64,000 nucleotides of DNA from Flavobacteriaceae bacterium (lineage in GTDB: Bacteria; Bacteroidota; Bacteroidia; Flavobacteriales; Flavobacteriaceae). Shown piece by piece: positions 10,395 through 46,953 of this stretch. Every line of letters begins with the position of its first letter. The stretch's first letter is position 1. The notes below the pieces were generated by a model. That model was not told the DNA's origin. It worked only from the letters and a program-made list of their open reading frames with translations, and searched no databases. The position numbers were made by a program, and so were the translations under genes. The stretch is from NCBI GenBank assembly GCA_947453195.1, contig CANGFO010000004.1, positions 69,672 through 133,671 on the forward strand, written 5' to 3'.

Positions 10395-11432
10395 ATGAAA
10401 AAACTATTACTTTTTTTTATTTCAGCTTTAGCGTTTAACGCACAAGCTCAAGATCAATTTTTCAATTCTGACTGTGAATCATATACTGTCGGAAATATTA
10501 GTACAGATTTAACAGGTGCTACTGCTGGTCAAGGTGGATGGTACACTTACACTCCAACAACAGCTGTTCCTGTAGGAACACTTTCTGATTATCAAGTTGT
10601 AAACAATACGGTTTCAAATTCAAAAGTTCTTCAAGTTTCTGGTTCTTCAGGTGCTGCTGGATCTAGATATTTATCTCAAGATATTTCAACTGCTTGGACA
10701 GGTAGAACATCTGGAAACGACATTGTTCAATTAGAATATGATTTCTTCACAGGAAGTGGTGTTACAACTTCTAAAAATACTTTCAGAACTTACATTTATA
10801 ATAATGATGGTTCTGCAGTAATCGCTGTTGCAGGATTTCATTTTGATCCTGCTACTTTAAAACTAAGCGGTTGGGCTTATTATGATAACGCTGGTACTGC
10901 TGGATATTATATTTTTAATTTAATTACTGGTGGATTAACATTAAGTGCTAATACATGGTATAGAGTTGGAGTTGCTTACGATTATAATACGGGAGACGTA
11001 ACATGGAAAGAAGCTAATGGTTTATTCTATTCAGGAGTTACTGCTGCTTCTTCGGGAATTGATATTTCAGAATGTGACTTTGCAGTAAGTGCTGGTACAA
11101 GTAATACTGTTGCAAATCAATTTCTAGTTGATAATGTAAATATTTCTGCTGTTGCTGTTGAAGCCTTATTAGGTACTAATACGAATTCATTTTCTACTAA
11201 AGATTTTTCTGTATTCCCTAATCCAGCAAAAGATTTTGTAAACGTTTCATCAACTTCTTCTTCAATTAATTCAATTGAAATTTCTGACTTAAATGGAAGA
11301 GTAGTTAAAACAGTAAATGCTATTGATGCTGCAAATGCTCAAGTTAACGTTGCTGATTTATCAACTGGAGTTTACATGATGAAAATAGTTTCTGATAAAG
11401 GAACTACAACTAAAAAGGTTATTAAAGAATAA
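10395..11432 (+). CDS. T9SS type-A sorting domain secreted protein
   Basis: Signal peptide; C-terminal FSVFPNPA..GVYMMKI..TTKKVIKE; Ser/Thr/Gly-rich beta-type body. Confidence 0.9.
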   Translation: MKKLLLFFISALAFNAQAQDQFFNSDCESYTVGNISTDLTGATAGQGGWYTYTPTTAVPVGTLSDYQVVNNTVSNSKVLQVSGSSGAAGSRYLSQDISTAWTGRTSGNDIVQLEYDFFTGSGVTTSKNTFRTYIYNNDGSAVIAVAGFHFDPATLKLSGWAYYDNAGTAGYYIFNLITGGLTLSANTWYRVGVAYDYNTGDVTWKEANGLFYSGVTAASSGIDISECDFAVSAGTSNTVANQFLVDNVNISAVAVEALLGTNTNSFSTKDFSVFPNPAKDFVNVSSTSSSINSIEISDLNGRVVKTVNAIDAANAQVNVADLSTGVYMMKIVSDKGTTTKKVIKE

Positions 11433-11452
11433 TTACTCTTTAATTATATATT

Positions 11453-11485
11453 AAAAAGACTAAGCATTGCTTAGTCTTTTTTTTT
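11453..11485 (+). terminator. Rho-independent terminator
   Basis: aaaaagactaagc-att-gcttagtctttttttt. Confidence 0.85.
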
Positions 11486-11669
11486 GCTATTAATTCAATA
11501 ATAGTATTATAACGAAAGTACTATTTACTTATGACATTCATGATAATTTTACATTTAGTGTAATAAAAAGTCATTATTTTTATATACTATATAATTTTAT
11601 TTTAAAAAAATTACACAATATTCTTTTTTAGATTTGCTAATTTAGTATATTTATGCAAAATTTATATAT

Positions 11670-12089
11670 ATGGAAATAGCAGCATGTCCCAAGTGCCAAA
11701 ATGATACCATAGTAAAAAGTGGTGTAATAAAGGATAGACAAAGGTATTTATGTAAAAAATGCAATTATTACTTTACCGTTAATAAACTTGGAAAAAAAAT
11801 AGATAGTTACTATGTAACCAAGGCTTTGCAACTTTATCTAGAAGGATTAAGTTATCGTGAAATTGAGCGAATTATCGGGGTTTCTCACGTCACAATTAGC
11901 AATTGGGTAAGAGAATTTAAAATTACTAAACCAAATCATACCGATTACCATCCTACGTACAAAATATATAATCATTTAGAATTAGTTGAATTTCTAAAAA
12001 ATAAAGACCAATTAAAGGGGGCAGGGATGATTATAACCGAACTAGGAGATAAGTTCATGCTGATAAAATGGGAACGTTTTAAAGATTAA
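11670..12089 (+). CDS. IS1 InsA-like Zn-ribbon + HTH protein with no transposase partner (probable DNA-binding regulator)
   Basis: CPKC..VKSG...RQRYLCKKC Zn ribbon, then ALQLYLEGLSYREIERIIGVSHVTISNWV HTH; no DDE domain or InsB ORF follows. Confidence 0.8.
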   Translation: MEIAACPKCQNDTIVKSGVIKDRQRYLCKKCNYYFTVNKLGKKIDSYYVTKALQLYLEGLSYREIERIIGVSHVTISNWVREFKITKPNHTDYHPTYKIYNHLELVEFLKNKDQLKGAGMIITELGDKFMLIKWERFKD

Positions 12090-12194
12090 CTATAGTAGTT
12101 TACAAAATTATATACATAATTTTTTTTCATATACCTAATTTTAGAATTTAGTCGAGCAATTAAATTGTATTACTAACCTAAAAATTACCAATTT

Positions 12195-13457
12195 ATGAAA
12201 AAAATTATTTTATTATCCTTTGCAGCTTTTTCTGCAATAGGTTACTCACAAACACCTGCTTCAGCTACTTCTGCTCCAGCAGCTAAAGAATGGGAGGTAA
12301 ATATGTACGGTTTCATTAGAACCGATTACATTTTTGATTCTAGAAAATCTGCTTCGGTAAGAGAAGATGAATTAAATCTTTATCCTTTAGATGTTGCTCC
12401 GGATAATAAAGGAAGTGATATCAATGCCGTTAATCAATCTAATTTCTTATCTGTTGTTTCTAGACTAGGAGTTAAGGCAAAAGGTCCAGATGTATGGGGT
12501 GCAAAAATGAATGGAACTTTAGAAGGTGACTTCTTTGGAAATACCGAATCCAGTCCTTCTTCAATAGGAATGTTTCGTTTGCGTCATGCTTTTGTAACAA
12601 TGGATTGGGCTAAGACTCAATTAACAATGGGGCAAACTTGGTACCCTACATTTATTCCTGAGGTTTTTCCCGGTGTTGCTAACTTCAATACTGGAATTAT
12701 GTTCAATCCTTTTGGATGGGCAACACAAGTTAAATTTAAACATAACTTATCTAAAGTAATATCTTTAGCAGTTACTGCCTATAAAGAAAGAGAGTTTGCA
12801 AACGCTATTGTTTCTCCTGGAACTCAAAATGCTGCTTCAATCAACTCGGCTTTACCTTCATTTAATTTATTATTCCAATTTAAAAACAACAATTGGATTG
12901 CAGGATTAGGAGCTGAATATAAATCACTACAACCACTTACAGATAATGGAGCAACAACAAAATTAGTTACTACTGAAAAAGTAAATAGTTCATCTGTTTT
13001 TGGATATGCTAAATATTCTAATGATAAATTTTCTGTAAAAGCTTATGCTATTTCAGGAGGGAACCTAAATAGCTTGGTGATGCTAGGAGGTTTTACAGGA
13101 ACTACAAATAACGGTATTCAATCATTTGATCCTACTAAAACAACTTCTTATTGGATTGATATTGCAAGTAATGGTAAAAAAGTGGCTCCTGGATTCTTCT
13201 TTGGATCAACTAAAAATAATGGAGCAAGTACTGCAGGAGCTATCTACATGCGTGGCTTAAGTGGACCTAGAGTAGTAGATAATGTTTGGAGAGCTTCAGG
13301 TAGAATTGATTTCAAACAAAACAAATTTAGAGTTTCTCCAGAAATAGAATATACTGCAGCTACATGGGGTGATGTAGATACTTTTGGAAAAGCTGGAGAT
13401 AACAAAACTACTGTTGGAAACATGAGAGTATTAGTTTCCTGCGTATATTCATTTTAA
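12195..13457 (+). CDS. DcaP-like outer-membrane porin
   Basis: Signal peptide, MYGFIRTDYIFD, SRLGVKA, LEGDFFG, FRLRHAF and terminal CVYSF. Confidence 0.8.
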   Translation: MKKIILLSFAAFSAIGYSQTPASATSAPAAKEWEVNMYGFIRTDYIFDSRKSASVREDELNLYPLDVAPDNKGSDINAVNQSNFLSVVSRLGVKAKGPDVWGAKMNGTLEGDFFGNTESSPSSIGMFRLRHAFVTMDWAKTQLTMGQTWYPTFIPEVFPGVANFNTGIMFNPFGWATQVKFKHNLSKVISLAVTAYKEREFANAIVSPGTQNAASINSALPSFNLLFQFKNNNWIAGLGAEYKSLQPLTDNGATTKLVTTEKVNSSSVFGYAKYSNDKFSVKAYAISGGNLNSLVMLGGFTGTTNNGIQSFDPTKTTSYWIDIASNGKKVAPGFFFGSTKNNGASTAGAIYMRGLSGPRVVDNVWRASGRIDFKQNKFRVSPEIEYTAATWGDVDTFGKAGDNKTTVGNMRVLVSCVYSF

Positions 13458-13489
13458 TAATTAACTAACCTATTAATAAAAAATAAAAT

Positions 13490-15286
13490 ATGAGTGATAA
13501 ATCAACAAAAGGAATTTGGAAAGTAATTTCGGCTTCCTCTTTAGGTACGATGATAGAATGGTATGATTTCTACATCTTTGGAAGTTTAGCAGTAGTTTTG
13601 TCTACTAAATTCTTTCCGTCAGACAATCCAACAGCCGCATTCTTATCTACATTAGCAACATTTGCTGCAGGTTTCGTGGTTCGTCCATTTGGTGCCTTAT
13701 TCTTTGGGCGTCTTGGAGATTTAATTGGAAGAAAATATACTTTCATGGTAACCTTAGTTTTAATGGGGGGAGCAACTTTTATGATTGGTTGTATTCCTAG
13801 TTATGAAACAATTGGTTTCATGGCACCTTTATTAGTATTGTTACTTCGTTTACTTCAAGGTTTAGCTCTTGGAGGAGAATATGGTGGAGCAGCAACTTAT
13901 GTAGCTGAGCACGCTCCTAGAGGACAAAGAGGTTATTGGACTTCATGGATTCAAACTACAGCAACTGTAGGTTTAATTATTTCTTTAATGGTAATTTTAA
14001 TTACTAAAGGAATATTATCTAAAGAAGAGTTTGATGCGTGGGGATGGAGAGTTCCATTCTGGGTATCTATCATCATGGTATTTGTTTCGTATTTGATTCG
14101 TAAAAACATGGATGAATCTCCAGTTTTTGCTAAAGCTAAAGCAGAAGGAAAAACGAGTGTAAATCCATTAAAAGAAAGTTTTGGACATAAATTAAATTTG
14201 AAATTTGTTCTTTTAGCTTTATTTGGAGCGACAATGGGACAAGGAGTTGTTTGGTATACTGGGCAATTTTATGCAATGAGTTTCATGAAAACAGTTCAAA
14301 GTATTGATTCTTCTCAAGTAGATACTTTATTAGGAATTGCTTTATTATTGGGTACACCATTCTTTGTATTCTTTGGATGGTTGAGTGATAAAATTGGTAG
14401 AAAAACTATTATGATGGCAGGTATGCTATTGGCTATACTTTTATATCGTCCTATTTACCGTCAGATGTATCATTTAACCGATGCAAAAGAAATGGTAAAA
14501 AATAACATTACCGTTGTAAAAGATAGTTGTAAAGCTATTGGATCATATGTAGCAACTGTTAAAACTGAGGCGGATAAAAAAGATCCATCTGTAAAAAACA
14601 CTAAAATCTTTATTGATTTCAAAACAGATACTTTATATTCTAATGGAGCTAAGTTTCACTTCACAAAAACGGATACTTTATACCTAGCTAAAGAATTAGC
14701 TTATGATGCTAAGGCAGCTGGTAAAAATGAAACGTGGATTAAATACAACTCAAAAGATAAAGCTGGGGTTGTTGTTCACAATGTTGTTAAAGTTAAAAAC
14801 GACTTGAAAGAGGATGAAAAACCAGTAAAAGTGGATACTCTTGCAGCTTTAGCATTGAAAACATTTACAAGTGGAGAAGCTAAAGATAAATCTCACATTG
14901 ATGGAATTAGTGTTAAGCCAAACGTAGCTGTAGTGAAAAATATTACAGACGATGTTAGATGGACTTTAATTTTCTTAATTTTTGTACAAGTAATTTTTGT
15001 AACTATGGTTTACGGGCCTATTGCTGCTTTCTTGGTGGAAATGTTCCCTGTAAAAATTAGATATACGTCGATGTCATTACCTTACCACGTTGGAAATGGC
15101 ATCTTTGGTGGATTATTACCTGCAATTTCAACTTACTTAGTTACAACTGCAAAAGGTACAGGTCCTAAACCATTAAATCCGGAGTTTTACTTAGAAGGAT
15201 TATGGTATCCAATTATCATTGCAGCGGTTTGTTTCGTAATCGGAATGATCTATATTGACAAAAAAATTAATACACTTCACGACTAA
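13490..15286 (+). CDS. MFS metabolite:H+ symporter (MHS family) with a large soluble insertion
   Basis: IEWYDF, FGRLGDLIGRK, GGEYGG, LSDKIGRK and EMFPVKIRYT; ~160 hydrophilic residues inserted in the C-terminal half. Confidence 0.92.
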   Translation: MSDKSTKGIWKVISASSLGTMIEWYDFYIFGSLAVVLSTKFFPSDNPTAAFLSTLATFAAGFVVRPFGALFFGRLGDLIGRKYTFMVTLVLMGGATFMIGCIPSYETIGFMAPLLVLLLRLLQGLALGGEYGGAATYVAEHAPRGQRGYWTSWIQTTATVGLIISLMVILITKGILSKEEFDAWGWRVPFWVSIIMVFVSYLIRKNMDESPVFAKAKAEGKTSVNPLKESFGHKLNLKFVLLALFGATMGQGVVWYTGQFYAMSFMKTVQSIDSSQVDTLLGIALLLGTPFFVFFGWLSDKIGRKTIMMAGMLLAILLYRPIYRQMYHLTDAKEMVKNNITVVKDSCKAIGSYVATVKTEADKKDPSVKNTKIFIDFKTDTLYSNGAKFHFTKTDTLYLAKELAYDAKAAGKNETWIKYNSKDKAGVVVHNVVKVKNDLKEDEKPVKVDTLAALALKTFTSGEAKDKSHIDGISVKPNVAVVKNITDDVRWTLIFLIFVQVIFVTMVYGPIAAFLVEMFPVKIRYTSMSLPYHVGNGIFGGLLPAISTYLVTTAKGTGPKPLNPEFYLEGLWYPIIIAAVCFVIGMIYIDKKINTLHD

Positions 15287-15298
15287 AACCTAGAAATT

Positions 15299-15517
15299 AT
15301 GATGAACGCAATAAAAAAATATATTGGAATAGTATGGATCGCTTTAGCAGCTATTGTCGCTTACTATTGCATCGGAATCTTTGGAGGAAAATTAACCTCT
15401 GGTAAACAAGATGATTTGGTTTTCGGAATTATTATCTTCTTTGTATTACTTCCTTTAGTGGTTACAGGACTTACTATTTTTGGTTGGTATGCTATGACCA
15501 ATGAATATGAAGATTAA
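15299..15517 (+). CDS. Small 2-TM membrane protein (DUF6814-like)
   Basis: 72 aa with two hydrophobic helices, directly after the MFS gene. Confidence 0.7.
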   Translation: MMNAIKKYIGIVWIALAAIVAYYCIGIFGGKLTSGKQDDLVFGIIIFFVLLPLVVTGLTIFGWYAMTNEYED

Positions 15518-15537
15518 TTAGTTACTATTTAACTTGT

Positions 15538-15570
15538 AAAAGCTCTTAGAAATAAGGGCTTTTGCTTTTT
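15538..15570 (+). terminator. Probable rho-independent terminator
   Basis: aaagctctta-gaaa-taagggcttt followed by a T-rich tail. Confidence 0.6.
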
Positions 15571-15641
15571 TAATAAACTTGTTAGCTATTTCTTTTTTCT
15601 TAACTAAAATGTAATTAATTTTAACATCTAATAATAAATAG

Positions 15642-15836
15642 ATGAAAAAAAGACACCAACAAAAAATGCTTATCATATCCTATGTTTTATTCATGGGTTT
15701 TAACATGCCGTTGGTTTTACTTTTTGATTCCTCTGCATCAGCGTTTGGTATTCCATTTATTTACTTTTATTTTTTCACTCTTTGTTTGTTATCTATAGTA
15801 ATATCCTTAATAATTGTAAAACGATATAATGAATAG
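15642..15836 (+). CDS. Small 2-TM partner protein of the SSS-domain kinase
   Basis: 64 aa, two TM helices with FGIP loop; overlaps the kinase start by 8 nt, as small SSS accessory subunits often do. Confidence 0.7.
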   Translation: MKKRHQQKMLIISYVLFMGFNMPLVLLFDSSASAFGIPFIYFYFFTLCLLSIVISLIIVKRYNE

Positions 15837-18516
15837 CATAGTATTATTAGTTATACTTACTGGTTATTTGTCTGTATTATTTTTCATTGCTCATTGGGCA
15901 GAAAAAAATGAAAATAATAAATGGACCAATAATCCGTATGTTTATACTTTATCTCTAGCTGTATATTGTACCGCTTGGACCTATTATGGTAGTATTGGAG
16001 TAGCAGCCGATCATGGCTTAAGCTATTTACCAATATATTTAGGCCCCATAATTATTGCACCTTCGTGGATATTAATTTTGAAAAAAATCATAAGAATATC
16101 TCGAGTAAATAAAATATCTAGCATTGCCGATTTCATCTCTTTACGATACGGGAACAGTCGTTTTTTAGGTGCTATAGTTACAGTTATTTGCCTTGCAGGA
16201 ATATTGCCATACATAGCCTTGCAATTAAAAGCTATTGCAGAAACTTTTCACATTGTTACCAAAACAAAAGCTAGTTCTTTAATATTTAATGATACTACCA
16301 CATATGTTGCCATTGCGTTAGCTCTATTTGCATCTTATTACGGAACTAGATATGTAGACGCCTCCGAAAAAAGAAAAGGAATTGTAACAGCCGTTGCTAT
16401 TGAAAGCGTTTTAAAATTAGTTTTCTTTCTAATAATTGGAATTTATGTTACCTACTTTGTTTTTGATGGGTTTGAGGATATTTATCAAAAAGCATCCTTA
16501 TTAGAACATTTTAAAGAAAAAAATTCCATTGGTGGTCTGCCTCAAGCAATCAATTGGTTTTTACTTTGTATACTTTCCATGTTTGCTATCTTTTTACTAC
16601 CACGACAATTTCAAGTATCAGTAATTGAAAATAACAGAGAAAACCATATCAATACAGCGGTATGGTTGTTTCCTTTGTATTTATTACTGTTCAATATTTT
16701 TGTTTATCCAATAGCTTGGGGAGGAAATATATTATTTGAAGGACAACATGCCAATTCGGATACTTATTCGTTATTAATTCCGCAATTATTTAATCAAAAA
16801 CTACTTACAGTTATGGTTTTCTTTGGAGGATTTTCTGCAGCAATTTCAATGATAGTTGTATCTTCTATTGGTCTTTCTACTATGGTTACAAACAATATTT
16901 TAATTCCATATAATTTAATTGGAAAACTTAAAGGAACAGAAGATTCAATAAGTTCAAGAAAAATTCTAAATACTCGTAAAATGAGTATCTTTTTTCTAAT
17001 CATTTTATCCTACTTAATATATCAATTCTTTGGGCTAGATTATAGTTTAGTTTCTATAGGAATGGTTGCTTTTGTAATTATTGCCCAATTATCTCCTGCT
17101 TTTTTCGGTGCTTTATTTTGGAGAAGAGGATCAAGGCTTGGGGCGATTTCTAGTATTATTGTTGGATTTATTATTTGTGTTTATACGCTGCTTATTCCAT
17201 ATTCTATTGGCACAAGTAATAGTTCGAGTACTTTTATTACAAATGGTTTTATGGGAAATCATTTATTAAAACCATTCCAATTATTTGGATTGGATTATTT
17301 AGATCCAGTTCCGCACGCCTTATTTTGGAGTTTGCTTTTTAATTGGATTACTTATTTTGCTGTTTCAGTTAGTTTTAAAGGCAATTATAGAGAACGGAAT
17401 TACGCCGAAATGTTCGTAGATATAAGTAAATACATCACCAACCACGAGAATGTTTTTGTTTGGAAAGGAACAGCCTACCGAAATGATATCGAGAAAGTAT
17501 TGATACGTTTTCTTGGATTGGAACGAACTAAGCGGGCAATGAATATTTTCAATATTAAATACAACGTAGATAGCAATCAAGAATTAGCTGACGCACGATT
17601 AATTAAGTTTTCCGAAAATTTACTCACAGGTCACATAGGAACTGCCTCTGCAAGAATTTTAATTTCGAGTGTTGTCAAAGAAGAAAAAATTAGTTTGCCT
17701 GAGGTTTTAAAAATATTAGAAGAGTCTAAAGAAAATATTATCATCAACAAAAAACTTACAGAAACTTCTAATGAACTTAAGGAGATTACAGCTAAACTTC
17801 AAATAGCGAACCACTCACTAATTGAAAAAGACAAACAAAAAGATGAATTCCTTGATACCGTTACACATGAGCTAAGAACTCCAATAACTGCTATTAGGGC
17901 GGCTAGTGAAATATTACACGATGATGACGAAATTCCTGAAGAATTAAAAAAACAATTCCTGCAAAACATTATTTCCGAATCGGATCGTTTGAATAGACTG
18001 ATTGATAAAATCTTAGATTTAGAAAAATTTGAAACAGGAAAACAAACCATAAATCCTGAGGTGAATAATCTAGTTGCAACAATTGAAAATTGTATTGAAC
18101 CACTTACTCAATTGATAAAAAACAAAAATATTACCATTGAATTTGATACTAAAAATAGAATAGATGCGTATTATGATGAAGACCGTATAATTCAATTGGT
18201 TACCAATTTGCTTTCTAATGCCATTAAATTTTGTCCAGATAATAAAGGAGTAATATCCATTAACATTGAAACTAAAGGAAATGAAATTTTAACTTCGGTT
18301 ACAGATAATGGGAAAGGAATTAACACATCCGACTTTGAAGCTATATTCGAAAAATTCTATCAATCGAATAATCAAAATATTAAAAAACCTGAGGGTAGTG
18401 GTTTAGGATTAGCTATTTGCAAACAAATTATAGAACATCATAAAGGAACTATTTGGGTAGAACCAAGCGAAATAGGAGCCCAGCTAGTATTTACTTTACC
18501 AATAAAACCAGAATAA
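15829..18516 (+). CDS. SLC5 (Na+:solute symporter)-STAC-histidine kinase, CrbS/CbrA-like
   Basis: N-terminal SSS domain (LSLAVYCTAWTYYGSIG, SIADFISLRYG), STAC-like FSENLLTGHIGTASARIL, H-box THELRTP, and NLLSNAIKF, DNGKG, GSGLGLAIC. No PAS or receiver domain evident. Confidence 0.9.
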   Translation: MNSIVLLVILTGYLSVLFFIAHWAEKNENNKWTNNPYVYTLSLAVYCTAWTYYGSIGVAADHGLSYLPIYLGPIIIAPSWILILKKIIRISRVNKISSIADFISLRYGNSRFLGAIVTVICLAGILPYIALQLKAIAETFHIVTKTKASSLIFNDTTTYVAIALALFASYYGTRYVDASEKRKGIVTAVAIESVLKLVFFLIIGIYVTYFVFDGFEDIYQKASLLEHFKEKNSIGGLPQAINWFLLCILSMFAIFLLPRQFQVSVIENNRENHINTAVWLFPLYLLLFNIFVYPIAWGGNILFEGQHANSDTYSLLIPQLFNQKLLTVMVFFGGFSAAISMIVVSSIGLSTMVTNNILIPYNLIGKLKGTEDSISSRKILNTRKMSIFFLIILSYLIYQFFGLDYSLVSIGMVAFVIIAQLSPAFFGALFWRRGSRLGAISSIIVGFIICVYTLLIPYSIGTSNSSSTFITNGFMGNHLLKPFQLFGLDYLDPVPHALFWSLLFNWITYFAVSVSFKGNYRERNYAEMFVDISKYITNHENVFVWKGTAYRNDIEKVLIRFLGLERTKRAMNIFNIKYNVDSNQELADARLIKFSENLLTGHIGTASARILISSVVKEEKISLPEVLKILEESKENIIINKKLTETSNELKEITAKLQIANHSLIEKDKQKDEFLDTVTHELRTPITAIRAASEILHDDDEIPEELKKQFLQNIISESDRLNRLIDKILDLEKFETGKQTINPEVNNLVATIENCIEPLTQLIKNKNITIEFDTKNRIDAYYDEDRIIQLVTNLLSNAIKFCPDNKGVISINIETKGNEILTSVTDNGKGINTSDFEAIFEKFYQSNNQNIKKPEGSGLGLAICKQIIEHHKGTIWVEPSEIGAQLVFTLPIKPE

Positions 18517-18535
18517 AAAATTGAACCAAATCAAT

Positions 18536-18898
18536 ATGAAAAAGATACTAATCGTAGATGATGAGCCAAATATTGTAATGTCATTAGAATATACTTTCAA
18601 AAAAAATAATTTTGAAGTATATATTGCTCGCGACGGGCAAGAAGCATTAGATATTTTAAAAGCTAAGTTTCCTGATGTTATTATTTTGGATGTCATGATG
18701 CCAATGGTAGATGGGTATGCAACCTTAGAGCAAATTAAAAAAGACAGCAATTTAACCCATACTAAAGTCATTTTTCTTTCTGCAAAAAATAAAGAAAGTG
18801 ATATTGAAAAAGGGATGGCATTAGGTGCTAATGCCTATTTAACTAAGCCGTTTTCAATAAAAAAAGTAGTCGAAAAAGTACAAGAATTAGTAAGTTAG
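18536..18898 (+). CDS. Single-domain response regulator (receiver only)
   Basis: ILIVDDE, LDVMMP, FLSA, KPF. The ATG at 18536 is preferred to the TTG at 18521. Confidence 0.92.
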   Translation: MKKILIVDDEPNIVMSLEYTFKKNNFEVYIARDGQEALDILKAKFPDVIILDVMMPMVDGYATLEQIKKDSNLTHTKVIFLSAKNKESDIEKGMALGANAYLTKPFSIKKVVEKVQELVS

Positions 18899-19831
18899 CT
18901 AATTTAAATTCATTGTCGTTCCTGCTGGAATCACATATTTTTTATCAGCTACTTTTATGTAAATAGGTAAGGAACTTAAATTAGTTACTTTATTTTTTAT
19001 TGCAGAGAACTTCAAATTTTTATAGGCATTGATATAATCAACCAAATCAATTTGTTTGGCATAATATATTGTTAAATTACCTGCTAACATTTTAAAGAAT
19101 TTTTCAGTTTCATTCCACTTGATTTCATCGGTTCCCATTTCCCAACTATGTCCCCAAATATCTAATACTGCTAATTCCTTTGATTTCAAAAAGGATTCAA
19201 TTGTTTGATAAAATAAGGCAATTTCTTTTTGATCTTTTTCTGGTTGATTCGGCTCCCAATAGGCTTTTGCAAACTGATGGATTGTAGGATGCCATCTCAA
19301 AAAATCATTCGGAATTTCAAAATTATAGGTATCTCCAACAGTTCTTGCATATTCAATTCCTAGCCGTTTTATGATTTCAACTACGGTATCGTTAGTGTTT
19401 CCAAAAGGGTAGGCCATTCCTCGTATAGGGTATCCCATTATACGCTCTAACTCTTTTCGATCTTCAAAAATTTCATTCGCAACTTCTGATTTAGAAATAT
19501 CTGGTAAATTAGGATGATTGGCAGAATGAACGGATACTTCATGACCCTTGTAAAGCTCCTTTAACTCCTCTTTATTTAAATAATCATAATAGGAATTAGT
19601 ACTTAATTTATTTGAATTTAAATGAAACGTTCCAATGAGTTGGTATTTGTTCATCATTGCGACCAATTTTCTGTCATTTTTTGCTCCATCATCATAACTC
19701 AAAATTAGTGCTTTGGTTTTTCCCTCAGGGAAAAGCATTTCAATTTTTATGGATTTGTTAGTGTCAATGTTAACTTGTGCACAATTAGAGAATGTGGTAT
19801 GTAACACTAAAATAAATATATACTTTTTCAT
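18899..19831 (-). CDS. Polysaccharide deacetylase (CE4/NodB family), exported
   Basis: SYDDG, HSANH and RGMAYPFG; N-terminal signal-like segment. Confidence 0.85.
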   Translation of the reverse strand: MKKYIFILVLHTTFSNCAQVNIDTNKSIKIEMLFPEGKTKALILSYDDGAKNDRKLVAMMNKYQLIGTFHLNSNKLSTNSYYDYLNKEELKELYKGHEVSVHSANHPNLPDISKSEVANEIFEDRKELERIMGYPIRGMAYPFGNTNDTVVEIIKRLGIEYARTVGDTYNFEIPNDFLRWHPTIHQFAKAYWEPNQPEKDQKEIALFYQTIESFLKSKELAVLDIWGHSWEMGTDEIKWNETEKFFKMLAGNLTIYYAKQIDLVDYINAYKNLKFSAIKNKVTNLSSLPIYIKVADKKYVIPAGTTMNLN

Positions 19832-19906
19832 AGATCTAAATTCTAATGCAAATTAATGATAATTAAGATTCAAAAAAGTTAATAATGCAAATTTTTTAAA
19901 AAAATG

Positions 19907-19963
19907 TATATACCTATTTAGCAAAATTAATTCTACTCGTATTTCTTTATTATCTAAATTTAC
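19907..19963 (+). promoter_or_regulatory. Candidate operator box plus TAnnTTTA promoter element upstream of the prpE-like gene
   Basis: TATATACCTATTTAGCAA at 19907-19924 and TAAATTTAC at 19955-19963; the same architecture occurs upstream of acs. Confidence 0.5.
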
Positions 19964-20000
19964 TTAATTCAATTAAACAATTGTTAATTTATATATCACA

Positions 20001-21896
20001 ATGAATTACGAAGAATTCTATTCTAAAAGTATCCAATCACCAGAAAAATTTTGGGCTGAACAAGCTGAAGCTATTTCATGGTTTAAAAAACCGACTGCCA
20101 TTTTATCTAAAGATGAAAATGATTATCCGTTATGGTTTAATGACGGGGAAATAAATGTTTGTTATTTAGCTTTAGATAAACATATAGAAGATGGGTTTGG
20201 GGATCAAGATGCTATAATTTACGATTCACCTGTTACACAAATTGTAAGAAAATATACCTTTAACGAAGTGAAAACAGAGGTTGCAAAACTGGCCGGAGGG
20301 ATGCTGTCCTTAGGATTAAAAAAAGGAGATACTGCAGTGATTTATATGCCTATGATTCCGCAAGCCGCTTTTGCTATGTTAGCTTGTGCAAGGATAGGAG
20401 TTACCCATTCGGTTGTTTTTGGTGGATTTGCTCCACATGAATTAGCCATTCGAATTGATGATTGCAAACCAAGAGTACTATTAACGGCATCTTCTGGGAT
20501 AGAAATTGATAGGCTGATTGCTTATAAGCCACTTGTGGATGAAGCCATTGAATTAGCAGAACACAAGCCAAAAAAAGTTATCGTTTTTAATCGGAAATTA
20601 GGTGCAAGAATTCCATTTAAGAAATACGATGTAGATTATGATGCTTTAGTCTATGGATCTGAAGAGACGCCCTGTGTGAGTGTTAATGCCACCCATCCTT
20701 TATATGTATTATACACATCTGGAACAACGGGAAAACCAAAAGGAATTGTCAGAGATTCTGGAGGCTATGCTACAGCACTTAAATTTTCAATGCAATACAT
20801 TTATGGAGCAAAACAAGATGAAGTTTTTTGGGCCGCTTCCGATGTGGGCTGGGTTGTAGGACATAGTTTTATTGTATACGGCCCCTTAATTAATAGAAAT
20901 ACCACTGTATTATTTGAAGGAAAACCAATTAAGACTCCAGATGCTAGTACTTTTTGGAGAGTAATTTCTGAACATAAAGTGGCAACTATGTTTACCGCTC
21001 CAACGGCTATTCGTGCAATTAAAAAAGAAGATCCAAACGGGGAATTTATTAAGCAATATGATTTGTCTTGTTTACGAACTCAATTTTTAGCTGGAGAGCG
21101 CTGCGATGTTGCTACATTAGAATGGTATAACCAACATATCCCTGTTCCTGCAATTGACCACTGGTGGCAAACTGAATCAGGTTGGCCAATGATTGCCGAT
21201 ATGATGGGAGTGGAGTATTTACCCGTAAAACCAGGATCTGCCGGAAAAGCAGTGTCTGGTTATGATATTAGAATATTTGGAGAAAACGGAACCGAATTAG
21301 GTCCTAATGAAGAAGGGTATGTAGTCATAAAATTACCATTACCTCCGGGAACCATGTTGGATTTATGGAAAGACAATCATCGATTTCAAGAAGGCTATTT
21401 GAAGAAGTTTCCTGGATATTATTTTTCTGGAGATGGAGGATATAAAGACGATGATAATTATATTTTTATAACGGGTAGGGTAGATGATGTAATTAATGTT
21501 GCCGGTCATAGACTTTCTACTGCAGAGATGGAAGAGATCGTTTCATCACATCACTCTGTTGCAGAGTGTGCTGTGGTTGGAATCAATGATGATTTAAAAG
21601 GTCAAGTTCCTTTAGGTCTAGTAGTTGTAAAACATGGTGAAGCTATAGAACATTTTCAATTACAGCATGAGGTAGTTCATTTAGTAAGAGAACAAATAGG
21701 AGCAGTGGCTTCTTTAAGGGATGTAGTTGTGGTAGAGCGATTACCAAAAACACGTTCGGGTAAAATTCTAAGAAAGTTATTGAGAAGTATCGCGGATGGA
21801 GAAAGTTTCCAAACTCCTTCAACAATAGATGATGAAGCAATAATAGATGAAATAAAGTTAGAATTTATAAAATCTAAAATAGGATCTTTTAAATAA
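20001..21896 (+). CDS. prpE: Propionate/acetate--CoA ligase (PrpE-like)
   Basis: YTSGTTGKPKG, DHWWQTESG, GRVDDVINVAGHRLST and PKTRSGKILR. Confidence 0.8.
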   Translation: MNYEEFYSKSIQSPEKFWAEQAEAISWFKKPTAILSKDENDYPLWFNDGEINVCYLALDKHIEDGFGDQDAIIYDSPVTQIVRKYTFNEVKTEVAKLAGGMLSLGLKKGDTAVIYMPMIPQAAFAMLACARIGVTHSVVFGGFAPHELAIRIDDCKPRVLLTASSGIEIDRLIAYKPLVDEAIELAEHKPKKVIVFNRKLGARIPFKKYDVDYDALVYGSEETPCVSVNATHPLYVLYTSGTTGKPKGIVRDSGGYATALKFSMQYIYGAKQDEVFWAASDVGWVVGHSFIVYGPLINRNTTVLFEGKPIKTPDASTFWRVISEHKVATMFTAPTAIRAIKKEDPNGEFIKQYDLSCLRTQFLAGERCDVATLEWYNQHIPVPAIDHWWQTESGWPMIADMMGVEYLPVKPGSAGKAVSGYDIRIFGENGTELGPNEEGYVVIKLPLPPGTMLDLWKDNHRFQEGYLKKFPGYYFSGDGGYKDDDNYIFITGRVDDVINVAGHRLSTAEMEEIVSSHHSVAECAVVGINDDLKGQVPLGLVVVKHGEAIEHFQLQHEVVHLVREQIGAVASLRDVVVVERLPKTRSGKILRKLLRSIADGESFQTPSTIDDEAIIDEIKLEFIKSKIGSFK

Positions 21897-21900
21897 TCTA

Positions 21901-21957
21901 TATATATTTATTTAGCAAGAAAAATCTTTTTCAAAATAATAGAATACTTATATTTAC
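21901..21957 (+). promoter_or_regulatory. Candidate operator box plus TAnnTTTA promoter element upstream of acs
   Basis: TATATATTTATTTAGCAA at 21901-21918 (16/18 identical to the prpE box) and TATATTTAC at 21949-21957, with the same spacing. Confidence 0.5.
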
Positions 21958-22002
21958 ATAAAATTAATTACTAGTTAAATTTAACTAATTACCCCAATTA
22001 CA

Positions 22003-23910
22003 ATGAGTTATTATAAAATACAAAACTTAGAACATTACTTTAAAATGTATAAAAAGTCGGTACGCGAACCTAGAAAATTTTGGGATCGTATTGCTGATGA
22101 GAATTTTACCTGGTACCAAAAATGGGAAAAAGTATTTGAATTTGATATGCAAGAATCTAAATTCAAGTGGTTTATTGATGCCAAAGTAAATATTACAAAA
22201 AATTGTATTGACAGACATTTATCAAAAAGAGGTGAAAAAACCGCAATAATTTTCGAGCCAAACGACCCTAGTGAAGCAGCCCAACATATTTCTTATAACG
22301 AATTGTATGCACGAGTTTCAAGAATGGCAAATGTTCTTAGAGAACAAGGTGTGAAAAAGGGAGATCGTGTTTGTATTTATTTACCAATGATACCTGAATT
22401 GGCAGTTTCAGTTTTGGCTTGCGCCCGAATTGGAGCTATCCATTCAGTTGTTTTTGCTGGATTTTCTTCTTCAGCAGTTTCAGCGAGAATTAACGACTCG
22501 GAATGTAAAATGGTAATCACTTCTGATGGAAGTTATCGCGGAAATAAAGCAATTGACTTAAAAGGAATTGTAGATGAGGCTTTAGAAAAATCTCCATGTG
22601 TAGAAAAAGTATTGGTTGTTAAACGTACAAATACTAATGTAAACATGAAAGAAGGACGCGACCAATGGCTGCAACCTTTAATGGATGCTGCAGTTCCAAA
22701 TAACGTAGCAGAAATTATGGATTCAGAAGATCCGTTATTTATATTGTATACTTCAGGATCTACAGGGAAACCTAAAGGAATGGTTCATACCACTGCTGGT
22801 TACATGGTTTATACAGCTTATACCTTTAAAAATATTTTTAATTACGAAGAAAATGACGTGTATTGGTGTACTGCTGATATTGGTTGGATTACCGGACATT
22901 CGTATATATTATACGGACCATTATTAAATGGAGCTACTACAGTAATTTTTGAAGGTGTTCCTTCTTATCCTGACTTTAGCCGTTTTTGGGAAGTAATAGA
23001 AAAACATAAAGTAAATCAGTTTTATACTGCACCAACTGCAATTAGAGCCCTAGCAAAGGAAAGTTTAGATTACGTTCAAAGATTCCCTTTAAGTTCATTA
23101 AAAGTTATTGGCTCTGTTGGAGAACCAATTAATGAAGAAGCATGGCACTGGTACAATGACCATGTAGGAGGGAAGCGCTGTCCACTTGTAGATACGTGGT
23201 GGCAAACCGAAACTGGTGGAATTATGATTTCACCAATACCTTTTGTAACCCCAACAAAACCAACCTATGCATCCTTACCATTACCTGGAATTCAACCGGT
23301 TTTGATGGATGAATTGCGTAATGAAATCGACGGAAACCAAGTTACAGGAAGTTTATGTATAAAATTTCCTTGGCCTTCTATGGCTAGAACAATTTGGGGA
23401 GACCACCAAAGATATAAAGAAACTTATTTCTCAGCATTCCCCGGTAAATACTTTACTGGAGATGGAGCATTAAGAGATGAAGTTGGGTACTATAGAATTA
23501 CCGGAAGAGTAGATGATGTAATTATTGTTTCTGGGCATAATCTAGGTACTGCACCAATAGAAGATGCTATAAATGAACACCCAGCCGTGGCAGAAAGTGC
23601 TATTGTTGGATTCCCTCATGATATTAAAGGTAATGCACTTTATGGTTTTGTAATCTTAAAAGAAGTAGGGGAAAGTAGAAATCATGAAAACCTTGCAAAA
23701 GAGATCAATCAATTGATTTCAGATCAAATTGGGCCAATTGCTAAATTGGATAAAATTCAGTTTGTTTCTGGTTTACCAAAAACAAGATCTGGTAAAATCA
23801 TGCGTAGAATTTTAAGAAAAATTGCCGAAGGAGATTTCTCTAATTTTGGGGATACTTCAACTTTATTGAATCCAGAAATTGTAGATGAAATAAAGGATGG
23901 TAAAATTTAG
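22003..23910 (+). CDS. acs: Acetyl-CoA synthetase (AMP-forming)
   Basis: YTSGSTGKPKG, CTADIGWITGH, DTWWQTETG and PKTRSGKIMRRILRK. Confidence 0.95.
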   Translation: MSYYKIQNLEHYFKMYKKSVREPRKFWDRIADENFTWYQKWEKVFEFDMQESKFKWFIDAKVNITKNCIDRHLSKRGEKTAIIFEPNDPSEAAQHISYNELYARVSRMANVLREQGVKKGDRVCIYLPMIPELAVSVLACARIGAIHSVVFAGFSSSAVSARINDSECKMVITSDGSYRGNKAIDLKGIVDEALEKSPCVEKVLVVKRTNTNVNMKEGRDQWLQPLMDAAVPNNVAEIMDSEDPLFILYTSGSTGKPKGMVHTTAGYMVYTAYTFKNIFNYEENDVYWCTADIGWITGHSYILYGPLLNGATTVIFEGVPSYPDFSRFWEVIEKHKVNQFYTAPTAIRALAKESLDYVQRFPLSSLKVIGSVGEPINEEAWHWYNDHVGGKRCPLVDTWWQTETGGIMISPIPFVTPTKPTYASLPLPGIQPVLMDELRNEIDGNQVTGSLCIKFPWPSMARTIWGDHQRYKETYFSAFPGKYFTGDGALRDEVGYYRITGRVDDVIIVSGHNLGTAPIEDAINEHPAVAESAIVGFPHDIKGNALYGFVILKEVGESRNHENLAKEINQLISDQIGPIAKLDKIQFVSGLPKTRSGKIMRRILRKIAEGDFSNFGDTSTLLNPEIVDEIKDGKI

Positions 23911-23935
23911 TTTTTTTTTAGTTTAAATAGTTTTT

Positions 23936-23970
23936 AAAAAGCTGCTTCTTATGAAGTAGCTTTTTTTTTT
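23936..23970. terminator. Bidirectional rho-independent terminator
   Basis: aaaaagctgcttc-ttat-gaagtagctttttttttt between convergent genes. Confidence 0.85.
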
Positions 23971-23974
23971 ATAG

Positions 23975-24349
23975 TTAACTATTATCTTTTCGGATATAAA
24001 CTATGAAAGATATAGATAGAGCTAAATAGGGAAGTGTACTGCAAAATATCTTATAATTTTTGGAAAATATTCCGACTATAAAAAAGAAAAATACTAGTAA
24101 AAATAACAAAAACACACCTAATGTATTCGCTTTTTTATTGAATTTAGGATATAAAACACCAAGAATTAGTAGGATTTGAGCAATTAATCCAGCCAAAATA
24201 ACCGGATGCGTTAAATTATTAATTAGGCTCTCGGTTTTAGTCGCAATTTCTATTTCTCCTTGAAAAATAAACATGGAATTGTTTGGGGGCCACTCCAAGT
24301 AACAAAACTGAAAAGCTAGTAATAAAGTTAAATTTAATACTCTTCGCAT
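23975..24349 (-). CDS. Hypothetical membrane protein (about 4 TM)
   Basis: Hydrophobic 124-aa ORF abutting the exonuclease-like gene. Confidence 0.7.
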   Translation of the reverse strand: MRRVLNLTLLLAFQFCYLEWPPNNSMFIFQGEIEIATKTESLINNLTHPVILAGLIAQILLILGVLYPKFNKKANTLGVFLLFLLVFFFFIVGIFSKNYKIFCSTLPYLALSISFIVYIRKDNS

Positions 24350-24946
24350 TTACAAGATATTCAATCTAGATTTCAGTTTTAAAAACAATAACGCTAGGGT
24401 ATAAGCGTCATCGGTGGTAGAAATTCGTTCTGTTTTTGGGATTTTATATAAGGTTCCTAATTGTTCAATAGTAAAATTTGCATTGTTGATGTCGTTTAGT
24501 TTCTTGTGCATAATTTCGACATCCAAAGCTTCATTTTTTAATCTTCCGCAAGCCATTTTTTCAAGAACCTCATTAATCATTTCAACATCAAAATTAATGC
24601 GATGCCCAACCAAGGTTGAGTTTCCAATGTATTCAATGAGTTTTTCCATGGCTTGCCACTCTGACATTTTTGGTTGTTCAGACTCTAATAAGAAATCACT
24701 AGAAATACCATTATCGTGCAGGTATTTGTATTGCGGAATGGTAACTTCAAAAACATCTCCAATACGAATACTGTCTTCTATAATTGAAACTGCACCAAAC
24801 GATAATATAACGTCTTTTTTTGGATTTAACCCACTAGTTTCCGTGCATAAAACTACATATCGATTGGATTTGTGTTCGAATTTTGATAAGTAGGTCTTCC
24901 AGAATTCAGGAGAATTTTTATTTATATTTTTTAACCAATCAATCAT
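24350..24946 (-). CDS. DnaQ/PolC-like 3'-5' exonuclease family protein, catalytically degenerate
   Basis: ExoI reads VLCTETSG (Asp replaced by Cys), ExoII VGHRINFD is retained, and ExoIII reads RISTTDD (His absent). Confidence 0.8.
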   Translation of the reverse strand: MIDWLKNINKNSPEFWKTYLSKFEHKSNRYVVLCTETSGLNPKKDVILSFGAVSIIEDSIRIGDVFEVTIPQYKYLHDNGISSDFLLESEQPKMSEWQAMEKLIEYIGNSTLVGHRINFDVEMINEVLEKMACGRLKNEALDVEIMHKKLNDINNANFTIEQLGTLYKIPKTERISTTDDAYTLALLFLKLKSRLNIL

Positions 24947-24949
24947 AAC

Positions 24950-26863
24950 TTAAGAAAATTGCGTTAATTGAATTTTATCTTTAATCAACTCTTCAAGATC
25001 TTTCATTGGTGCTAAAGCATTTTTTAATTTCTCTTTGTCCACTTTATTCAGCTCATCTAAGTTGATAAATTGTCCAGTATCATCATTCTTTAAACCTTCT
25101 AAAGTTCTAAATTTAGATAAGACTAAAAATGCATCGGCACAATTTAAATAAATTTCAGAAAACTTAGGATCAACCATAGCTAACTGTTTAAATCTTAAGT
25201 AAGTGCTATTAACCCCTTTAATATTATTGCTTAAAATTAATAATCGAGCTCCATCTATTAAAGGCATTAATGCTTTAGTTTTGATGTCAAATTTGCCTTT
25301 ATGTTCCCCTTCTTCTTCAATATTGAACTTTTTAAAGAAGTTCAGTGGAGTAGGTTTTTTGATGGTATCGTTTCCTAAGTAATCTAAGAAAAGTACTTTA
25401 TTTTTTATGTTTGAAAAAATAATATCGGTTAGTGCGTCTTCAATTTTTTGTTCGCCAAAAGCCATTTCATAATCAAAGAATACGCTACTGATTTCATTAG
25501 TGCTTTCACCTGGAGTATTCATCCAATTCTCGTATTGTTTTACCCAGTCAGTCAATGACTTACACCACATCATATTGCTAGCCATATGGCCGTTAGGACA
25601 ATTTATATAACCTACTTTTTCAAGTGTTGCTGTGGCTTTTCGGGCTAATTTTAAAAAATAATCTTTTACATCTCTGTATTTTTCGGGAGTAACATCTTCA
25701 AAGACCAAAATACTATCTTGATCTGTTAATAATAACTGCTCTTTTCTACCTTGACTTCCAATGCTTAGCCAGGCAAAACGTGCAGGAGGAGAGCCTAATT
25801 CTAAAATAGCTTGCTCTACAGCGCGCTTAATAATGGCTAAAGTAATTTCTCCAACAATACTGCTAATATGAGTGAGCGGAATGTTTTTATTTAAAGAAGA
25901 TTGAATGATATCAGCCAATTTATTTCGAACTAATTTCAATTCTTTGGCGGTTTGAGATTTTTTTATCTCTTTTAAAAGAATTCCTGGATTATTAGCTTGA
26001 GCCACAACCAAATCATGTTCTGAAATTATACCTTTAACTTCCGATTTGTCCGTTCCGTCTTTAGTTACGCACAGGTGAGTAACCGCGTGTTTCAACATAA
26101 CCAACTGAGCTTCTGCAACTGAAATGTTTTCAGTAACCGTTATTACTGGAGAGGCCATGATTTTACTGATAGTATTCGTTAAAGGAAATCGGCCCGTAGC
26201 CACTTTAGACCTAAAATCTTTATCAGTAACAATGCCAATCGGGTTATTTTGATCAATAATTAAGGCGCTATCAAACATGTTTTCGGTAACCAACTGCGCA
26301 GCATCTTTAATTAAGGTATCGTGGCTAATTTTTAAAGGTGTTTTATTGTAGTTTAAAGACTGAAAGTATTGCATATCTGACTGATTATCAGTGTAGGATA
26401 CGTTATCAGATATCAAAGTATGATTTTTATTGTCTAAACTATTTTTTGTATTTACCGCAAAACTCTCCAGAAGAAAATCTAGAACCGGAGCATTTTGCGC
26501 CACAAATGGTTTAAAAGTAGCAATTGGAATAGCGTAAACAATACTTTCTTCACGGGCTTTTGCTGTCATTTGATAATTGTTCTTTGCGAAGAAAGGACGC
26601 AAACCAAAAATATCACCAGCATAACATTTATTTAATAAAGTTTCCTCAGCATCAGAAATAACAGTTAAATGAATAACTCCAGAGGCAACTACATAAAAAG
26701 AGTCGTGGAGCGAGTCATTTATCTGAAACAACGATTTATGTTTTTCTAAATTAATTACACGAATAGTTGATACAATCTTAAGTAAATCTTCGTAAGATAA
26801 ATAACTAAACGGTTCGTATTCTTTTAAAAAGTTTGCTATACGTTGGGAAATAGCATTTTCCAT
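24950..26863 (-). CDS. cNMP-binding + CBS + DUF294 (GlnD-like) nucleotidyltransferase
   Basis: cNMP domain GDIFG, CBS pair (GIVTDKD, GIISEHD), NTase motif GSQGRKEQLLLTDQD, and C-terminal FDIKTKALMP. Confidence 0.9.
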   Translation of the reverse strand: MENAISQRIANFLKEYEPFSYLSYEDLLKIVSTIRVINLEKHKSLFQINDSLHDSFYVVASGVIHLTVISDAEETLLNKCYAGDIFGLRPFFAKNNYQMTAKAREESIVYAIPIATFKPFVAQNAPVLDFLLESFAVNTKNSLDNKNHTLISDNVSYTDNQSDMQYFQSLNYNKTPLKISHDTLIKDAAQLVTENMFDSALIIDQNNPIGIVTDKDFRSKVATGRFPLTNTISKIMASPVITVTENISVAEAQLVMLKHAVTHLCVTKDGTDKSEVKGIISEHDLVVAQANNPGILLKEIKKSQTAKELKLVRNKLADIIQSSLNKNIPLTHISSIVGEITLAIIKRAVEQAILELGSPPARFAWLSIGSQGRKEQLLLTDQDSILVFEDVTPEKYRDVKDYFLKLARKATATLEKVGYINCPNGHMASNMMWCKSLTDWVKQYENWMNTPGESTNEISSVFFDYEMAFGEQKIEDALTDIIFSNIKNKVLFLDYLGNDTIKKPTPLNFFKKFNIEEEGEHKGKFDIKTKALMPLIDGARLLILSNNIKGVNSTYLRFKQLAMVDPKFSEIYLNCADAFLVLSKFRTLEGLKNDDTGQFINLDELNKVDKEKLKNALAPMKDLEELIKDKIQLTQFS

Positions 26864-46856: not shown

Positions 46857-46953
46857 GATAGATATATTATATTGTTTTTATTTTTTGTGTTGCAAAAGTA
46901 TAAAATAGTAATTAGTTTTTTAATTAAAATTTGCTAAATTTCTATATATACTA

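Follow-up and report, generated by a model that had tools for sequence, protein, structure and literature searches.

A short box shared by the promoters of two acyl-CoA synthetase genes, prpE and acs, was identified in a 64,000-nucleotide (nt) stretch of a Flavobacteriaceae bacterium (the window; contig CANGFO010000004.1, assembly GCA_947453195.1) and is very probably a functional operator of a regulon for the utilisation of short-chain carboxylates (acetate/propionate). In its full form our reading holds that the box is a regulon operator used across the family, that it is bound by a protein encoded in the same locus which carries a zinc ribbon and a helix-turn-helix (HTH) like those of InsA of IS1, and that the mode of action is activation; to this full statement a probability of roughly 0.6 is given. 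The two boxes and the elements that follow them are located as follows, in window coordinates:

19907-19924, forward strand: prpE box, TATATACCTATTTAGCAA; the 17-mer used for the position weight matrix (PWM), 19908-19924, is ATATACCTATTTAGCAA and scores 24.4 bits; predicted to lie at about -60 to -43
19955-19963, forward strand: -7-like element of prpE, TAAATTTAC, 30 nt past the box; transcription start site (TSS) predicted near 19967
21901-21918, forward strand: acs box, TATATATTTATTTAGCAA; 17-mer 21902-21918, ATATATTTATTTAGCAA, 22.0 bits
21949-21957, forward strand: -7-like element of acs, TATATTTAC, 30 nt past the box; TSS predicted near 21961

An earlier note on this DNA had described the two 18-mers at these positions as 16/18 identical, and had counted 31 nt from the last base of each box to the first base of a TAnnTTTAC element (that is, 30 nt between them). 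Positions, identity and spacing were all confirmed by re-reading. The acs box begins 5 nt past the prpE stop codon. The caution that the note attached to AT-rich DNA was apt for the bare match: when the two intergenic regions (169 + 106 nt) were simulated 3000 times with a Markov-1 model, 4.3% of the runs gave a best 18-mer match with 16 or more identical positions. Taken alone, the 16/18 match is only modestly unusual for AT-rich intergenic DNA. The shared distance from box to element is very unlikely to have arisen by chance, because TAnnTTTAC has a background frequency of ~5.6e-4 per position under a Markov-1 background. Over the window a degenerate form of the box pattern gave nine matches against 1.8 expected, a number reached in 0/100 shuffles. 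When both strands of the 64-kb window were searched with a relaxed composite (a box of at least 6 bits, 29-31 nt, then TAnnTTT), just four sites were returned, all of them intergenic and 75-89 nt before a start codon, namely those of a porin-like gene, prpE, acs and sucD.

The consensus of the box is an asymmetric 17-mer, CTATAccTATTTAGCAA, with two conserved parts, TATA at positions 2-5 and TTTAGCAA at positions 10-17, the centres of which are about one helical turn apart. Dyad symmetry is absent when CTATACCTATTTAGCAA is read directly against its own reverse complement. At prpE and acs the box occurs in a single orientation, at exactly 30 nt upstream of the -7 element.

For comparative footprinting, 80 orthologous prpE loci were collected from Flavobacteriaceae genomes (66-89% protein identity, 10-kb flanks). 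The box and TAnnTTTAC were found to recur wherever prpE or acs has its own upstream region, with the intervening sequence changing from one promoter to the next, and the box was conserved in 14 distinct orthologous prpE promoters and 25 distinct acs promoters. Cultured species with both boxes include Flavobacterium terrigena DSM 17934 (L006), F. cheonanense (L052) and F. proteolyticum (L013). The earlier note had named a lack of conservation in orthologous upstream regions, beforehand, as grounds for giving up its motif; the comparison was run and the motif came through it, TAnnTTTAC lying exactly 30 nt past the 17-mer in 39/41 distinct box-bearing promoters even though the spacing had been left free. 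Among the same 41 promoters the ATG lies anywhere between 54 and 93 nt from the box. The box carries 1.24-1.34 bits of information per position and the -7 element 1.28-1.32, compared with 0.38-0.66 for the spacer and 0.19-0.53 for the flanks, and pairwise identity is 0.81-0.92 in the box versus 0.43-0.56 in the spacer. The note's proposal of a common operator, and so of a regulon motif, is borne out to the extent that a conserved cis element is shared by functionally linked genes.

These comparative data refute, for practical purposes, the explanation that the similarity is a functionless remnant of a tandem duplication of prpE and acs or a chance match in AT-rich DNA. The two genes are indeed adjacent paralogues, and the bare 16/18 match has a P of ~0.04, but spacer and flanks have diverged to 43-56% identity with box and -7 element at 81-92%, the spacing between box and element is invariant across genera, and the box stands before genes that are not paralogous to prpE or acs (the HTH gene, the porin-like gene, sucD and a cNMP-CBS gene), in both orientations.

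Since the footprint sets had been selected by motif, a test based on gene gaps was run independently of the PWM. A box of at least 12 bits was present in 21 of the 27 loci with a prpE-acs gap of at least 60 nt, and in 0/40 of the loci with a gap below 60 nt, where acs follows straight after prpE in an operon arrangement.

The 1.46 Mb of loci were then scanned with a PWM trained solely on the prpE and acs boxes of other genomes (threshold 15 bits). Matches fell before acs (24) and prpE (15), 19 lay elsewhere and 82 were inverted copies before the HTH gene; none occurred inside conserved locus genes and, with the exception of L029, no box was seen before the kinase operon in the loci scanned. 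The inverted copies at the HTH gene are the strongest and most universal copies of the box. In the window the gene and its upstream block are:

11634-11669, reverse strand: double inverted box, a 36-nt near-invariant block, TTGCTAAATTAGTATATTTATGCAAAATTTATATAT, abutting the HTH start codon
11670-12089, forward strand: InsA-like protein of 139 amino acids (aa) with zinc ribbon, HTH and small C-terminal domain, the candidate box-binding regulator

The two members of the double box (the reverse complement of 11634-11650, ATATACTAAATTAGCAA, 19.4 bits, and that of 11653-11669, ATATATAAATTTTGCAT) are in tandem with a 19-nt period, and overlap both candidate -7 elements of the HTH gene, TAGATTTG (11629-11636) and TATATTTAT (11646-11654). 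The block is found at a fixed -36 in 58/63 loci and carries 1.35 bits per position compared with 1.04 in the first 60 coding nt of the HTH gene. An upstream extension of the HTH open reading frame (ORF) into the block was considered and is ruled out by an in-frame TAG. With a strong terminator lying 150 nt upstream, the HTH gene needs its own promoter at the double box.

The HTH protein is 64-94% identical across the 80 loci. It matches NF050000 (the IS1/IS1595 zinc-binding domain of NCBIfam) with 38.6 bits against a cut-off of 28 and HTH_23 with 25.2 against 24.6, and Zn_ribbon_InsA with 21.1, under the cut-off of 26.1; the best full-length model match is to the N-terminal 120 residues of the IS1 transposase, with a score of 78.9 against a cut-off of 100. 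An AlphaFold model (predicted local distance difference test, pLDDT, 78.5) has a beta ribbon at residues 14-37, a three-helix HTH (helices within 46-82) and a C-terminal beta-alpha-beta-beta unit. A search of the protein sequence against the PDB gave no significant match. Clustering at 90% identity divides the family into ~2,400 clusters, which carry the annotations transposase, terminase-related or hypothetical, and its members retain all three parts (zinc ribbon, HTH and C-terminal domain) down to ~32% identity. InsA of IS1, a protein with an N-terminal zinc ribbon and an HTH, recognises the ends of the element and acts as a repressor of its own promoter. The protein described here shares the order of zinc ribbon then HTH, and the autorepression we propose for it, via sites over its own promoter, would be analogous. 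It differs from InsA in its extra conserved C-terminal alpha/beta domain and in its score below the IS1 transposase cut-off, and from IS1 in being encoded by a single-copy, syntenic chromosomal gene, next to the porin-like gene in all loci, with no insB frame or terminal repeats. In Lrp/AsnC proteins a winged HTH is joined to a RAM domain (beta-alpha-beta-beta-alpha-beta), whereas the C-terminus of the present model is only beta-alpha-beta-beta and matches weakly.

Synteny ties the HTH gene to the proposed targets. The order HTH, porin-like, transporter, small membrane peptide, kinase, stand-alone receiver, prpE and acs was found in nearly all of the 80 Flavobacteriaceae loci. In suspecting the InsA-like protein, the receiver and the kinase the earlier note had pointed to the right candidates, which are syntenic with the targets in ~76/80 loci. 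Downstream of the HTH gene the window holds:

Starting at 12195 (within 12195-15517), forward strand: porin-like gene, 420 aa, no family match
13490-15286, forward strand: MFS metabolite/H+ symporter
15299-15517, forward strand: conserved 72-aa membrane ORF ending in ...FGWYAMTNEYED, directly after the MFS gene; terminator at 15536-15565
15642-15836, forward strand: CbrX-like two-helix membrane peptide of 64 aa (MKKRHQQK...), overlapping the kinase start (ATGAATAG) and present in all loci
15829-18516, forward strand: SLC5-type sensor histidine kinase with HisKA and HATPase domains
18521-18898, forward strand: stand-alone receiver of 125 aa, REC only, no output domain
20001-21896, forward strand: prpE-like acyl-CoA synthetase, matching best to propionate-CoA ligase models, under their cut-offs
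22003-23910, forward strand: acs, above the cut-off of the Acs model; terminator at 23936-23965

The pairing of box and HTH gene persists in rearranged and diverged loci. In L057 the HTH gene is divergent from prpE, with the double box between them in an orientation suiting both. Where the HTH homologue is ~40% identical, the locus consists of HTH, porin-like, DUF4212 + SSF permease, SSF-kinase, receiver and Acs genes, and such loci keep the double inverted box before the HTH gene and a direct box after it. In L212-L214 the DUF4212 + SSF permease pair stands in place of the MFS gene, as another inner-membrane transporter in the same regulon slot.

Promoter class was considered with reference to Flavobacterium psychrophilum, in which the sigma-A -7 box spans -12 to -5 (PMC9723704); on that basis the TSSs are predicted near 19967 and 21961 and the 17-mer box would lie at about -59 to -43. 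The promoters resemble the sigma-A promoters of Bacteroidetes (-33 TTTG about 20 nt before -7 TAnnTTTG, with transcription starting about 5 nt past the -7 box) in having TAnnTTT at the expected distance from the start codon, and differ from them in the TAnnTTTAC of prpE and acs, which agrees with the -7 consensus TAnnTTTG at 7/8 positions (G replaced by A), and in lacking a clear -33 TTTG. The latter is missing in the window and in most orthologues, where positions 7-10 of the spacer are T-rich (TCTT, TTCT, TTTC), with few cases of ATTG. A scan for sigma-70-type promoters returned fewer matches than shuffled sequence and is not informative for this phylum. A sigma-54 reading of the spacer (TTGGCA in some orthologues) was rejected, as there is no GC at -12 and the feature is not conserved. 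The prpE box was also tried as a minus-strand promoter of the divergent deacetylase gene and rejected, the spacing being 26 nt and the acs box having no minus-strand gene.

The fourth site of the relaxed composite, at sucD, is the one that can be compared with a mapped promoter:

46892-46947, reverse strand: sucD promoter, consisting of the box ATATAGAAATTTAGCAA (46947-46931, 17.5 bits), 30 nt, TACTTTTGC (46900-46892), 35 nt and ATG
45984-46856, reverse strand: sucD (succinate-CoA ligase alpha), a non-paralogous target

Its -7 element is the full canonical consensus, TACTTTTG, and this element and the sequence that follows it nearly match the sucD promoter of F. psychrophilum, which has a mapped TSS (sigma-A class SM1, 30-nt leader). 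The acs gene of F. psychrophilum is driven by another kind of promoter, in which a canonical -7 element is followed by a 270-nt leader and no box can be seen; it is therefore uninformative on the prpE/acs class, and sucD alone is of use there. Across seven distinct sucD lineages the -7 element is conserved and a box-like element is present in 4/7, the spacing being 30 nt in the window and 51 nt in the other three. The difference of 21 nt consists of ACTAATY heptads in variable number (window 46901-46930; L201, L207, L208 and L211) and, at two turns, keeps the helical phase. Judged from its promoter sequence, sucD is probably a regulon member, though not a universal one.

It is highly unlikely that box and TAnnTTTAC together form the bipartite promoter of an alternative sigma factor. 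Flavobacteria do possess several alternative sigma factors with their own motifs (PMC9723704), and it is TTTAC rather than TTTG that is invariant in the prpE and acs promoters with the element at 30 nt. However, 30 nt far exceeds any known sigma spacer, the box is paired with the canonical TACTTTTG at sucD, where the sigma-A promoter has been mapped in F. psychrophilum, the box is inverted at the HTH gene, and no sigma factor gene is linked to the locus.

Both the place of the box and the constant spacing between it and a non-consensus -7 element are as expected of an activator site. That the box serves for repression at prpE and acs, or has a dual function there, with carboxylates causing derepression, is quite improbable. 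The copies at the HTH gene do overlap the core promoter, which is repressor geometry, and InsA is a known repressor with the ends of IS1 as its binding sites. At prpE, acs and sucD, however, the whole of the box is upstream of the -33 region, and its orientation and distance do not vary, an arrangement typical of activation through contact with RNA polymerase and needless for simple occlusion; the -33 region is a poor one, the -7 element departs from the consensus, and the two spacings at sucD differ by 21 nt with helical phase kept.

The porin-like gene also has a box-like element, as the earlier note had proposed, in a promoter of somewhat different layout:

12090-12151, forward strand: porin promoter, with box A, CTATAGTAGTTTACAAA (12090-12106), TATATA from ~12110, a T-run at 12120-12127 and TAGAATTTAG at 12142-12151

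The conserved order is box A, a second TATATA 19-20 nt further on, a T-run and (T)AGAATTTGG; the consensus of box A is CTATAnnnnTTTACA, with TTTAGCA or ATTAGCAA in marine genera. The strings that the note had pointed to, TAGTTTACAA at 12096-12105 (7/10 identical to the core TATTTAGCAA) and TAATTTTA at 12136-12143, were placed correctly and the box-like element proved to be conserved. The claim of the same 31-nt offset did not hold, as TAATTTTA at 12136 is not conserved and the conserved -7-like element sits 6 nt further downstream. The TTT of (T)AGAATTTGG is found at an offset of 57 +/- 1 from the start of the box, not at the 51 of prpE and acs, and the 31-nt offset is thus a coincidence of this genome.

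Taken together, the proposed mechanism would run as follows. The IS1 InsA-like HTH protein would bind the box as an oriented unit; from its upstream position at prpE, acs and sucD it would activate RNA polymerase, and at its own gene it would repress transcription via the sites that overlap the core promoter. The SLC5-type transceptor kinase may set the activity of the HTH protein through the stand-alone receiver, which lacks a DNA-binding domain, and the signal sensed might be acetate, propionate or a related carboxylate. Binding, activation and autorepression by the HTH protein are steps that we infer from synteny and from the autoregulatory geometry of its promoter. That a transposase-derived, InsA-like protein forms the DNA-binding output of a two-component system across the Flavobacteriaceae, by a three-part path that would be new to bacteria and in which the reading of the box would depend on its orientation and distance, is put forward as a tentative suggestion.

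A number of observations weigh against the full statement. The link from HTH protein to box is one of co-localisation and autoregulatory-type geometry, and the structural neighbours of the HTH model found with Foldseek are weak and no more than a lead, the best being Lrp/AsnC (E ~6e-3, template modelling score 0.25-0.29). A box is missing from four loci with an acs gap of at least 90 nt, three of which nevertheless carry the HTH gene. Between box and -7 element the porin-like gene has 6 nt more than prpE and acs, and at sucD the interval is either 30 or 51 nt, with 3/7 lineages lacking the box. The A-C that follows TTT is invariant in 39/41 promoters, and a merely weak promoter, as the note's word "weakened" would have it, leaves this invariance unexplained. 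The note had linked TAnnTTTAC to the box promoters; it is present there, but is not peculiar to them, since in the window it also stands 24-55 nt upstream of four genes that have no box, at 44738 (forward strand) and at 49642, 62708 and 38796 (reverse strand), and it may for this reason be a usable sigma-A -7 variant in this organism. Of the metatranscriptome contigs, which are short and of low depth, one begins at 21948, or 13 nt before the acs TSS as predicted, and another at 21974. The start at 21948 could be read-through from prpE, given that no terminator was found between prpE and acs, or could point to a different start site; no contig in four metatranscriptomes (short, low-depth contigs) spans a box. 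The organism was present only in freshwater metagenomes.

The full statement would also fall if the operator were bound by some other protein, such as a global carbon regulator, or a DNA-binding response regulator with its gene outside the locus that acts together with the SLC5 kinase, and if the HTH gene were a mere target; this is somewhat unlikely. The receiver of the locus has no output domain, so that the HTH protein is only a putative output, and the tandem boxes at the HTH and porin promoters, with their 19-20-nt period, resemble the direct-repeat sites of some response-regulator families. Against this, the HTH gene is the sole DNA-binding gene that the locus retains in the 80 genomes and in the distant loci, the pairing of box and HTH gene survives both a change of gene order (L057) and divergence to ~40% identity, and autoregulation usually shows itself in sites placed over the promoter of the regulator.

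Binding by the HTH protein would set the system apart from its closest known counterpart, CrbS/CrbR (MxtR/ErdR) of Vibrio and Pseudomonas, in which an SLC5-type kinase controls acs and the ACTU motif lies at -52 to -36 (PMC5715377, PMC5436829). The two systems have in common an SLC5-type, transporter-like kinase with acs as target (here by motif), an operator just upstream of the core promoter (about -59 to -43 for the box), a regulon which by motif holds acs, a cNMP/CBS/nucleotidyltransferase gene and carboxylate uptake genes, and the absence of the motif where the system is absent or a target has no promoter of its own. The nucleotidyltransferase-like gene and its neighbour adjoin acs in the window:

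24350-26863, reverse strand: cNMP-binding/CBS/DUF294 nucleotidyltransferase-like gene (24950-26863) and DEDD exonuclease gene (24350-24946)

The nucleotidyltransferase-like gene has the same domain architecture as Pflu5625 of the CrbS/R regulon, for which a like pairing with acetate genes is reported in Pseudomonas. No box precedes it in this window, but three marine genomes have one before the orthologous gene. The HTH gene of L214 is divergently oriented to a cNMP-CBS-DUF294/RNase T pair. The differences from CrbS/CrbR are also considerable. CrbR belongs to the LuxR family of response regulators, whereas the receiver here has no DNA-binding domain and a zinc-ribbon/HTH protein is the candidate binder; ACTU forms an imperfect inverted repeat, whereas the box lacks symmetry and has no sequence relation to it; a hybrid kinase is the description given for CrbS, whereas the receiver here has a gene of its own; and the present promoters are of the Bacteroidetes -33/-7 type in a regulon that adds prpE, the porin-like gene and possibly sucD. 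No LuxR-type gene is conserved in the locus. As two defining features, the LuxR-type regulator and the inverted-repeat motif, are thus not shared, the system is not a member of CrbS/CrbR.

The kinase also has likenesses to CbrA of Pseudomonas. In a search of PDB sequences its N-terminal residues 6-458 were aligned to the SLC5 domain in the SLC5-STAC chain of CbrA (10ED_A, E = 4e-58). In the cryo-EM structure 10ED the peptide CbrX was found bound to CbrA (PMC13022988), and the two-helix ORF of the present locus overlaps the kinase start as cbrX does. A difference is that CbrA is a histidine sensor with the sigma-54 activator CbrB as its signalling partner. Pfam gave no match to the N-terminus of the window kinase, which its SSF model misses, and the same model matches the kinase of the distant locus L212.

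Some further features of the loci were recorded. Between receiver and prpE this genome has a polysaccharide deacetylase gene (18899-19831, reverse strand), a trait shared with L001 and L014 alone, whereas prpE comes directly after the receiver gene in most genomes. The stand-alone boxed prpE promoter is accordingly a lineage feature. In marine genera (L051, L054, L056, L059-L062 and others) a gap of 270-300 nt between receiver and prpE is filled by a small membrane ORF ending in ...NPNWFGLFNSKK. No known RNA families were found in 11000-24500 of the window. When metagenome contigs were searched for the exact composite pattern, 127 matches were obtained, 76 of them with a recognisable downstream ORF, and 35 of these 76 precede Acs or PrpE. 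An ORF of 60-62 aa (MMPGIPKAKVKSR...) recurs in metagenome contigs L088, L094, L107, L126, L138, L179 and L184. Upstream of it stand TATAGTAATTTAGCAA, then 30 nt, then a TAGATTT, the T of which is separated by only 7-10 nt from the ATG; at so short a distance TAGATTT cannot be the -7 box of this ORF.

In the literature searched, nothing specific was found on this operator, this regulon or an InsA-derived regulator in Bacteroidetes, or on the regulation of acs in flavobacteria. Transcriptional control in Bacteroidetes is poorly mapped, with few operators defined outside polysaccharide utilisation loci, and the present analysis provides a family-wide operator of strict architecture, a candidate regulator, a sensor and a coherent set of targets. 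This set comprises an outer-membrane channel, an inner-membrane carboxylate transporter and the acetyl- and propionyl-CoA synthetases, and possibly succinyl-CoA synthetase and the cNMP/CBS nucleotidyltransferase. Should the reading be correct, thousands of 'transposase-like' genes would be re-annotated as regulators, and a natural carboxylate-inducible promoter module would become available for flavobacterial genetics. Flavobacteria are major consumers of low-molecular-weight carbon in lakes and oceans and, on the same reading, would have solved the acetate switch with a sensor of the type found in Proteobacteria and an unrelated DNA-binding output.

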